Positions 21,019-21,306 of a stretch of 31,580 nt of DNA are shown in pieces. The position numbers and the translations under genes were made by a program. The notes under the pieces were generated by a model. It searched no databases and was not told the origin of the DNA. It saw nothing but the letters and a program-made list of their open reading frames with translations. This DNA is from a virus (taxonomy: Duplodnaviria > Heunggongvirae > Uroviricota > Caudoviricetes): positions 1 to 31,580 of the IMG/VR virus record IMGVR_UViG_2700989363_000008; one strand, given 5' to 3'. How positions within the stretch are numbered: the first letter of the stretch is position 1; the number at the start of each line of letters is the position of its first letter.

Positions 21019-21306
21019 GTGAAGAGTTTTATTTTGGTTTTATGTTTTGCCTTTTCTGCTGCGGTTTATGCCCAGGAAGATAGCATTTCTGTTATTAACT
21101 CATCAGCGGAGCTTGCATGTAAAAATAATCCCGATGCTGCATCAAAAGAATCATGCAAAGAACTGCTCCTTTCGACGGCTGCTTTTGCTTCTGAAAATGC
21201 GAAATTTTATTCAGCCTTCTGTCGCGGCTATGTTAAGGAAGAAGATAAAGAAAAATGTGATGATGCCGGTAAGTTAGTTAGGTATTTCCACTCTCTTAAT
21301 CCGTAA
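21019..21306 (+). CDS. Small secreted/periplasmic Cys-containing protein (~95 aa) with signal peptide
   Basis: GTG start with AGGAGA SD; N-terminus KSFILVLCFAFSAAVYA-QEDS is a signal peptide with an AxA-like cleavage site; four Cys in the mature part. Confidence 0.5.
   Translation: MKSFILVLCFAFSAAVYAQEDSISVINSSAELACKNNPDAASKESCKELLLSTAAFASENAKFYSAFCRGYVKEEDKEKCDDAGKLVRYFHSLNP

Follow-up and report, generated by a model that had tools for sequence, protein, structure and literature searches.

The DNA analysed here is a 31,580-nucleotide stretch of a Caudoviricetes virus genome (IMG/VR record IMGVR_UViG_2700989363_000008, positions 1 to 31,580, referred to below as the window). The window is an N15-like linear phage-plasmid, and the gene under study is a small open reading frame (ORF) on the + strand at 21019–21306, the final gene behind the replication gene repA and located directly before the C4/isrK anti-immunity RNA locus. 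The ORF runs from a GTG codon at 21019 to a TAA stop at 21304–21306 (95 codons, 288 bp), and the gene for a protein of about 95 residues described in the initial annotation is therefore present. An AGGAG ribosome-binding site (RBS) is located at 21009–21013, five nucleotides ahead of the GTG, within a 54-nt leader (20965–21018, + strand) that is common to PhiR46_1-type elements. The same start and the same 288-bp gene are given by RefSeq/PGAP and by the record of phage PhiR46_1, and diverged homologues (45–47% identical) share the N-terminus MKSFILV.... A longer reading from a GTG at 20995 (103 residues) is not preferred, since the RBS, the conserved N-terminus and the PGAP annotation all favour 21019.

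The product is made up of an 18-residue signal peptide, encoded at 21019–21072 (+ strand), and a 77-residue mature protein, encoded together with the stop codon at 21073–21306 (+ strand). The precursor reads MKSFILVLCFAFSAAVYA/QEDS..., where the slash marks the predicted signal peptidase I (SPase I) cleavage site after A18; the signal peptide consists of a basic n-region (MK), a hydrophobic core of 12 residues (SFILVLCFAFSA) and a small-x-small cleavage motif (AVYA/Q). The signal-peptide call was made from these n-, h- and c-regions and from an alignment of 18 homologues, all of which contain the three regions and the AxA motif, with the alanine at −1 invariant (18/18). The export type that had been proposed for the protein is thus supported, and it is predicted to be of the Sec/SPase I secreted type and not a lipoprotein. 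Attachment as a lipoprotein via Cys9 was considered and rejected, as the preceding L-V-L does not constitute a lipobox and Cys9 is not conserved. The earlier count of four cysteines is exact for the mature part, where C34, C46, C68 and C80 are invariant across the family; the precursor has a fifth, the non-conserved C9 in the signal peptide. The mature protein is acidic, with an isoelectric point (pI) of 5.05, and across the family mature proteins are 73–78 residues long and mostly acidic (pI 4.6–6.3).

The family is tiny: 5.8 billion proteins yielded about 20 clusters, only 12 members were retrieved when 1.84 billion representatives were scanned exhaustively with HMMER, and a third iteration with an 18-sequence profile added no further members. 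Genuine members are 91–107 residues long, are 30–47% identical to the window protein and originate from Citrobacter, Klebsiella, Salmonella and metagenomes, and every sampled member resides in a temperate phage of Enterobacteriaceae. The signal peptide and the four invariant cysteines are kept in all members, with the spacing C-x8/11-C ... C-x11/13-C, and a nearly invariant aspartate (mostly as D-K) is located three to four residues ahead of the last cysteine. Among 5426 complete Escherichia coli genomes, the full module was found in 14 and any match in 17, always on plasmids of ~46 kb, and PLSDB contains 19 E. coli or Shigella plasmids with the gene; the carrier elements come from human, poultry and pet E. 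coli isolates. All 18 family members match phrog_26765 and 17 also match its sister phrog_21025, both of unknown function, and these matches survive removal of the signal peptide; the window protein itself is a full-length member of phrog_26765 (E = 4e-63). The family is therefore already catalogued as hypothetical protein or PHROG 26765, and is uncharacterised, narrow and without a detectable fold relative.

The small size of the family, and the many database relatives that are frame-shifted or truncated, could be taken to indicate a chance or decaying ORF without function. The frame-shifted entries are two-frame hybrids that look like assembly errors, intact copies are 95–100% identical across the 19 plasmids, and homologues of 30–47% identity retain every cysteine and the signal peptide. 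Among near-identical N15-like copies the ratio of non-synonymous to synonymous substitution rates (dN/dS) is 0.13–0.26 and replacements are conservative, although only 3–10 substitutions underlie these values and power is low; a confident structural model (described below) also argues against decay. Absence of function is thus effectively refuted by conservation, is given almost no probability, and the ORF at 21019–21306 is confirmed as a real, conserved gene. As to the hybrids themselves (entries P0003–P0010, from E. coli plasmids CP088xxx and others), they join the correct frame to the +1 frame of the same DNA, which in the window corresponds to an ORF at 21047–21277; they are likely to be homopolymer frame-shift errors in the assemblies, and they swell the apparent diversity of the family.

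Structure prediction, which the initial annotation had proposed as a check, yielded a confident four-helix bundle that matches nothing significantly in PDB or BFVD. The AlphaFold2 model that includes the signal peptide has a predicted local distance difference test score (pLDDT) of 75, while prediction of the mature part from an 18-sequence alignment of mature regions gave a pLDDT of 90.5 and a predicted template modelling score (pTM) of 0.74. The four helices of the mature-only model span mature residues 4–16, 22–39, 43–53 and 56–75, and in a linear helix map each of the four cysteines is located 0–7 residues from the same end of its helix. Because the cysteines cluster at the same helix ends, it is likely from this model that two disulfides staple one pole of the bundle.

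Neither model gave a significant match in Foldseek searches against PDB, where the mature model reached a best E of 1.6 with a template modelling (TM) score below 0.5, and the mature-only model gave none against BFVD (best E = 0.5). Pfam and NCBIfam contain no family that scores above its cut-off, and PADLOC anti-phage defence models do not match any of the four family members submitted. Homology to a structural phage protein, which would have pointed away from an exported accessory factor, was looked for in Pfam, PHROG and, with Foldseek, in PDB and BFVD, and none was found. Three candidate matches were followed and discarded. DUF2385/TIGR02301 scores 13.8 bits (cut-off 25) and 13.3 (cut-off 42.6), respectively (E ~0.07–0.09), and is matched by only one of the 18 members. 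phrog_1256, described as a “valyl tRNA synthetase modifier”, is matched by seven members over residues 1–70 (E ~1e-4), but the match is gone without the signal peptide and is an artefact of it; the same applies to phrog_27673, which disappears when mature sequences are used.

The gene behaves like accessory, “moron”-type cargo and not like a core or structural gene, which bears out the accessory character implied from the start: it is low in G+C content, is present in some related phages and missing from others, and occupies several slots. In each of the eight loci compared, the gene is poorer in G+C than its flanks, by 9–18 percentage points in seven and by about 3 points in the eighth (L019); in the seven, the gene has 33–41% against 48–53% in the flanks, and the window copy itself has 38.9% against 47.5%. 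The gene is present in PhiR46_1 and absent from N15, phiKO2 and YDC107_1, and among 17 E. coli plasmids with a related repA it is found in 14 and missing from three. N15 carries unrelated genes, 33–36, in the same slot.

Family members occupy three unrelated insertion slots in temperate siphoviruses. The first, after repA, is that of the window, L001 and L013, and a 45% identical protein (P0011) is encoded there in another N15-like element. The second is immediately upstream of the tape-measure gene (L002–L009, L021, L025 and L026); in P0015, P0020, P0021 and P0024 the gene is the last one ahead of the tape-measure gene, typically 79–86 nt upstream, and closes a variable island behind the tail assembly chaperone that contains a HipA_2 pair, Arc, a P22_AR_N protein or an FtsK_gamma protein. 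The third slot is between the gpK/gpI and gpJ tail-tip genes (L010, L022 and L023; P0013, P0016 and P0030). One further member, P0031, is encoded in a remnant prophage, behind a DUF1799 chaperone gene.

The neighbouring cargo varies between loci. In the Klebsiella and Citrobacter prophages L002–L005, L025 and L026, a variable island of 2.5–5.5 kb is situated inside the tail operon, from the chaperone gene to the tape-measure gene, and contains a HipA_2-like kinase gene with a partner gene of ~290 residues, Arc, a P22 antirepressor N-domain and other cargo; in L003, a gene with a TIR domain additionally follows at a later point of the tail module. The arrangement looks like defence-like cargo in a late operon. 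In the Citrobacter prophages L006–L009 (7708–8004), the gene for a 98-residue FtsK_gamma-domain protein has a 4-nt overlap with the start of the family gene, which suggests translational coupling in that Citrobacter lineage only.

In tail-operon copies (L021, L022 and L006), a hairpin followed by a T-run comes directly after the gene, while the window offers no more than a GC hairpin whose U tract is imperfect, and this hairpin is shared with N15, a phage that lacks the gene. This hairpin, at 21368–21387 on the + strand, consists of an 8-bp GC-rich stem (CCCCGUGA-CUGG-UCACGGGG) conserved with N15, and may act as a weak terminator of the repA operon or stabilise its 3' end. No sigma-70-like site that could serve as the gene's own promoter was found upstream of it in the window, L021 or L006 by a crude consensus scan, which could miss weak or non-consensus sites. 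Separately, the region just after the ORF (21320–21390) contains TGATCA-N-TTCTGATCA, with two GATC sites, and a palindromic hairpin, CCCCGTGACTGGTCACGGGG; both are kept in N15 despite the different upstream gene and may serve the repA operon or immA as a regulatory or terminator element.

The surroundings of the gene in the window are mosaic. A close relative is phage PhiR46_1 of E. coli ECOR13 (PV340565), which is 94% identical over repA and 96–97% identical from 20965 onwards. Compared with repA of the 17 related E. coli plasmids, that of the window is only ~85% identical in its 3' part (19900–20884), while the adjacent ORF module shares 97–100% identity with the copies that 14 of these plasmids carry, giving a sharp mosaic junction near 20965. 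The placement of the gene directly downstream of repA needs qualifying: 134 nt separate it from the repA stop (20884), and these contain a 31-codon chimeric remnant ORF (20896–20991, + strand). The N-terminus of the remnant corresponds to positions 1–26 of the 82 of phrog_18790, and its C-terminus, RMADAKKVD, is the end of a 131-residue PhiR46_1 gene; PhiR46_1 has ~980 bp with three small genes where the window has ~160 bp, with BLAST breakpoints at 20803 and 20965. The remnant ORF and the replaced segment (20804–20991) mark the post-repA slot as a recombination-prone cargo region.

repA itself (16901–20884, + strand) was taken from the ORF list and encodes a 1327-residue primase/replication protein, which is annotated as primase or CyRepA1 in relatives and whose N15 counterpart is gene 37. 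The repA-to-gene interval contains only a weak 5-bp hairpin and no strong terminator. As the gene is co-oriented behind repA with no sigma-70-like promoter or strong terminator found between them, it is most simply read as the final cistron on the transcript of repA. [quoted passage not shown] Since repA is needed in the plasmid prophage, the transcript must exist in lysogens and should rise on induction; the gene product is thus probably scarce in the plasmid prophage and more abundant once induction has occurred.

The gene belongs to a familiar class, that of small exported prophage accessory proteins, and the role proposed for it is plausible. The initial annotation had assigned it to exclusion, inhibitor or lysogenic-conversion factors; as a class assignment this is reasonable given the export type and the accessory cargo character, while computation supplies neither a target nor a phenotype. 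Within this class, it is tentatively proposed that the protein is a periplasmic binder that blocks envelope crossing or DNA entry of incoming phages, a role to which somewhat less than an even chance is given. Transcribed as the last cistron behind repA, the gene would produce a precursor with a cleavable Sec signal peptide, which would be released into the periplasm. Its 77-residue mature part would fold as a compact four-helix bundle, and DsbA would be expected to oxidise the four invariant cysteines to two disulfides. The mature protein would then act as a stoichiometric binder, protecting the lysogen or infected cell through superinfection exclusion at the step of cell-wall crossing or DNA entry. 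Its binding target would be either a host factor for entry or, in the incoming phage, a component of the tail tip or tape measure. In function it would correspond to T4 Spackle, HK97 gp15 or Cor, and is not proposed as a homologue of any of them. The exclusion role is suggested because of the predicted periplasmic location, the moron behaviour and the repeated placement beside tape-measure and tail-tip genes, which includes the slot of HK97 gp15.

A more specific form of this proposal, which is possible though rather doubtful, is that the family represents new soluble periplasmic superinfection-exclusion proteins of temperate siphoviruses and phage-plasmids, with a disulfide-stapled four-helix fold without known relative, which block genome entry by binding the tape-measure or tail-tip complex of an incoming phage during its passage through the periplasm. 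Such proteins would be convergent counterparts of T4 Spackle. Targeting of the tape-measure/tail-tip complex would, if true, explain why most members sit immediately upstream of the tape-measure gene.

Several observations weigh against the exclusion proposal. Neither the sequence nor the predicted fold has homology to a protein of known function, and the functional step is argued solely from location, genomic context and analogy. A simple scan found no sigma-70-like promoter between 20500 and the start codon, so expression in the prophage is deduced from the repA transcript. The neighbouring cargo genes differ between loci and give no guilt-by-association signal. Finally, most relatives are co-oriented inside late tail operons, and late lytic expression fits a role in the lytic cycle equally well.

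Such a role could be exerted in the periplasm in the phage's own lytic cycle, through lysis timing or inhibition, in the manner of the periplasmic domain of the T4 antiholin RI, or by stopping progeny from injecting into the dying host. In addition to the late tail-operon position of most members, with its implied late transcription, the expected rise of repA-operon transcription after induction would suit this alternative. It is nevertheless considered improbable, as the gene is dispensable in close relatives (N15, phiKO2, YDC107_1 and three of the 17 E. coli plasmids), has a foreign base composition, is not linked to a lysis cassette (the lysozyme gene of the window is at 6839–7339), and is separated from downstream tail genes by a terminator-like hairpin.

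Lysogenic conversion aimed at something other than a phage is a further alternative, and is judged unlikely, if less so than a lytic role. The protein could serve as an orphan periplasmic immunity factor against colicin, pesticin or type VI secretion system cell-wall toxins, could protect against host lysozyme, or could modulate envelope stress or virulence. Periplasmic immunity proteins are likewise small, exported and disulfide-stabilised (the disulfides being predicted here), the carriers come from human, poultry and pet isolates, and relatives are found beside cargo or defence-like genes, including HipA_2 and TIR genes. Against this, no immunity or inhibitor family is matched in Pfam, NCBIfam, PADLOC, PDB or BFVD, and no toxin partner gene is located nearby; moreover, the family is found only in phage genomes, mostly in tail modules, which points to conflict between phages and not between bacteria.

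The remaining named alternative is suggested by a database label. The gene of PhiR46_1 (PV340565) encodes an identical amino-acid sequence and is annotated as “Spackle exclusion protein”, and the protein could accordingly be a homologue of T4 Spackle (gp61.3) or a convergent inhibitor of a peptidoglycan hydrolase or tail-associated lysozyme. T4 Spackle is a 75-residue, acidic, disulfide-bonded, helical periplasmic protein able to block entry, and its structure is a flat helical bundle with a single Cys29–Cys81 disulfide (PMC7677548). The likeness extends to the phage origin, a Sec signal peptide, a mature length of ~75–77 residues, acidity, a helical bundle, a disulfide (predicted for the window protein) and periplasmic location, and some relatives adjoin gpK, whose product has an NlpC/P60 domain. 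These common traits are generic and not diagnostic.

Homology to T4 Spackle was rejected by every comparison made. The Spackle query was checked to be an exact match to PDB 6X6O, and the PDB set searched contains 6x6o and 7cn6. BLASTP against T4 Spackle gave E = 31, and hhalign of the family profile against Spackle a probability of 0.3%. In phmmer and profile (hmmsearch) searches of PDB at E ≤ 10 neither 6x6o nor 7cn6 was listed, and Foldseek of the pLDDT 90.5 model against PDB listed no Spackle chain among its best 50 matches. T4 Spackle belongs to phrog_1586 and the window protein to phrog_26765; Spackle has one cysteine pair, while the window family has four invariant cysteines at other positions. 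True Spackle homology is thus essentially excluded, and the alternative as a whole, convergent inhibition included, is improbable. No paper on PhiR46_1 or on the origin of the “Spackle” annotation was found in the literature; the label on the identical GenBank gene is unsupported and should not be propagated. The probability that remains beyond exclusion of incoming phages and the alternatives set out above belongs to a role outside these readings.

Downstream, the gene is bounded by the anti-immunity locus. The match to the anti-immunity region of N15 starts at 21318, 12 nt past the ORF stop, and the immA-like locus itself begins at 21408 (21408–21631, + strand; homologous to N15 28431–28616) with a promoter-like site at 21408–21437 (+ strand). 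It contains c4-a1b1 (21431–21483), isrK (21444–21517), which ends in an intrinsic terminator at 21496–21513, and the C4 antisense RNA (21544–21631), all on the + strand; the three RNAs exceed their Rfam gathering scores and the locus is intact. After C4, there is an icd-like ORF at 21685–21849 and then an anti-repressor-like ORF at 21846–22079. A segment of ~800 bp at 22172–22968 is not present in PhiR46_1 and carries a 176-residue ORF (22328–22858) without a Pfam match, placed between a truncated 55-residue BRO-N antirepressor fragment (22076–22243) and telN. The protelomerase gene telN (23031–24944, − strand; from the ORF list) encodes 637 residues, with a long acidic low-complexity run (DDDLDDDEIEIEEEEEEEEEEEEESVEE) near the C-terminus (~23200–23300), and sopA and sopB come after it. 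The gene under study is thus located within the repA/anti-immunity/telN part of an N15-like phage-plasmid, in agreement with its earlier placement in a plasmid-maintenance region.

Phage resistance and lysogenic conversion stem to a large extent from small exported prophage proteins, most of which are uncharacterised. Few soluble exclusion factors of the periplasm are understood at the molecular level, T4 Spackle being the example documented here; should the present family block phage entry from there, this small set would gain a new fold and perhaps a new target. Such a function would also bear on host range in phage therapy against E. coli, Klebsiella, Citrobacter and Salmonella carrying such prophages.

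Comparison with known systems shows how the gene relates to each. The window protein belongs to PHROG 26765/21025, but these families carry no functional annotation. N15 genes 33–36, which are small, of unknown function and downstream of repA, occupy the same genomic slot as the window ORF, and the end of gene 33 coincides with that of the window ORF, directly ahead of the conserved hairpin and the C4 region; its product, gp33, has an unrelated sequence and, as read from the translation, neither a signal-peptide-like N-terminus nor the four-cysteine pattern. Among siphoviruses, Cor (phi80, N15 and T1) and Llp (T5) are small exported exclusion proteins encoded beside tail or receptor-binding genes. 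They differ from the window family in that they are receptor-blocking outer-membrane lipoproteins with a lipobox, while the window family shows an SPase I site and lacks any conserved cysteine of a lipobox. T4 Spackle is encoded by an early gene of a virulent T-even phage, in contrast to the window gene, which is cargo of a temperate siphovirus and phage-plasmid; Spackle targets the gp5-type tail lysozyme, and none is known in the window gene's own phage.

The founding moron, HK97 gene 15, offers the comparison closest in position. Its product is a superinfection-exclusion protein expressed from the prophage, whose effect depends on the tail of the incoming phage, and the gene is located between the tail assembly chaperone and tape-measure genes (PMC3594210). 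HK97 gp15 (YebO-like) is an inner-membrane protein encoded in the tail operon, whereas the window protein is predicted to be soluble after cleavage and its own gene follows repA; the two are compared here by slot and description. In these terms, relatives of the window protein occupy the very same chaperone/tape-measure slot, and both proteins are small and envelope-targeted (by prediction for the window family), with moron hallmarks such as low G+C content and, in the tail-operon relatives, a terminator-like hairpin.

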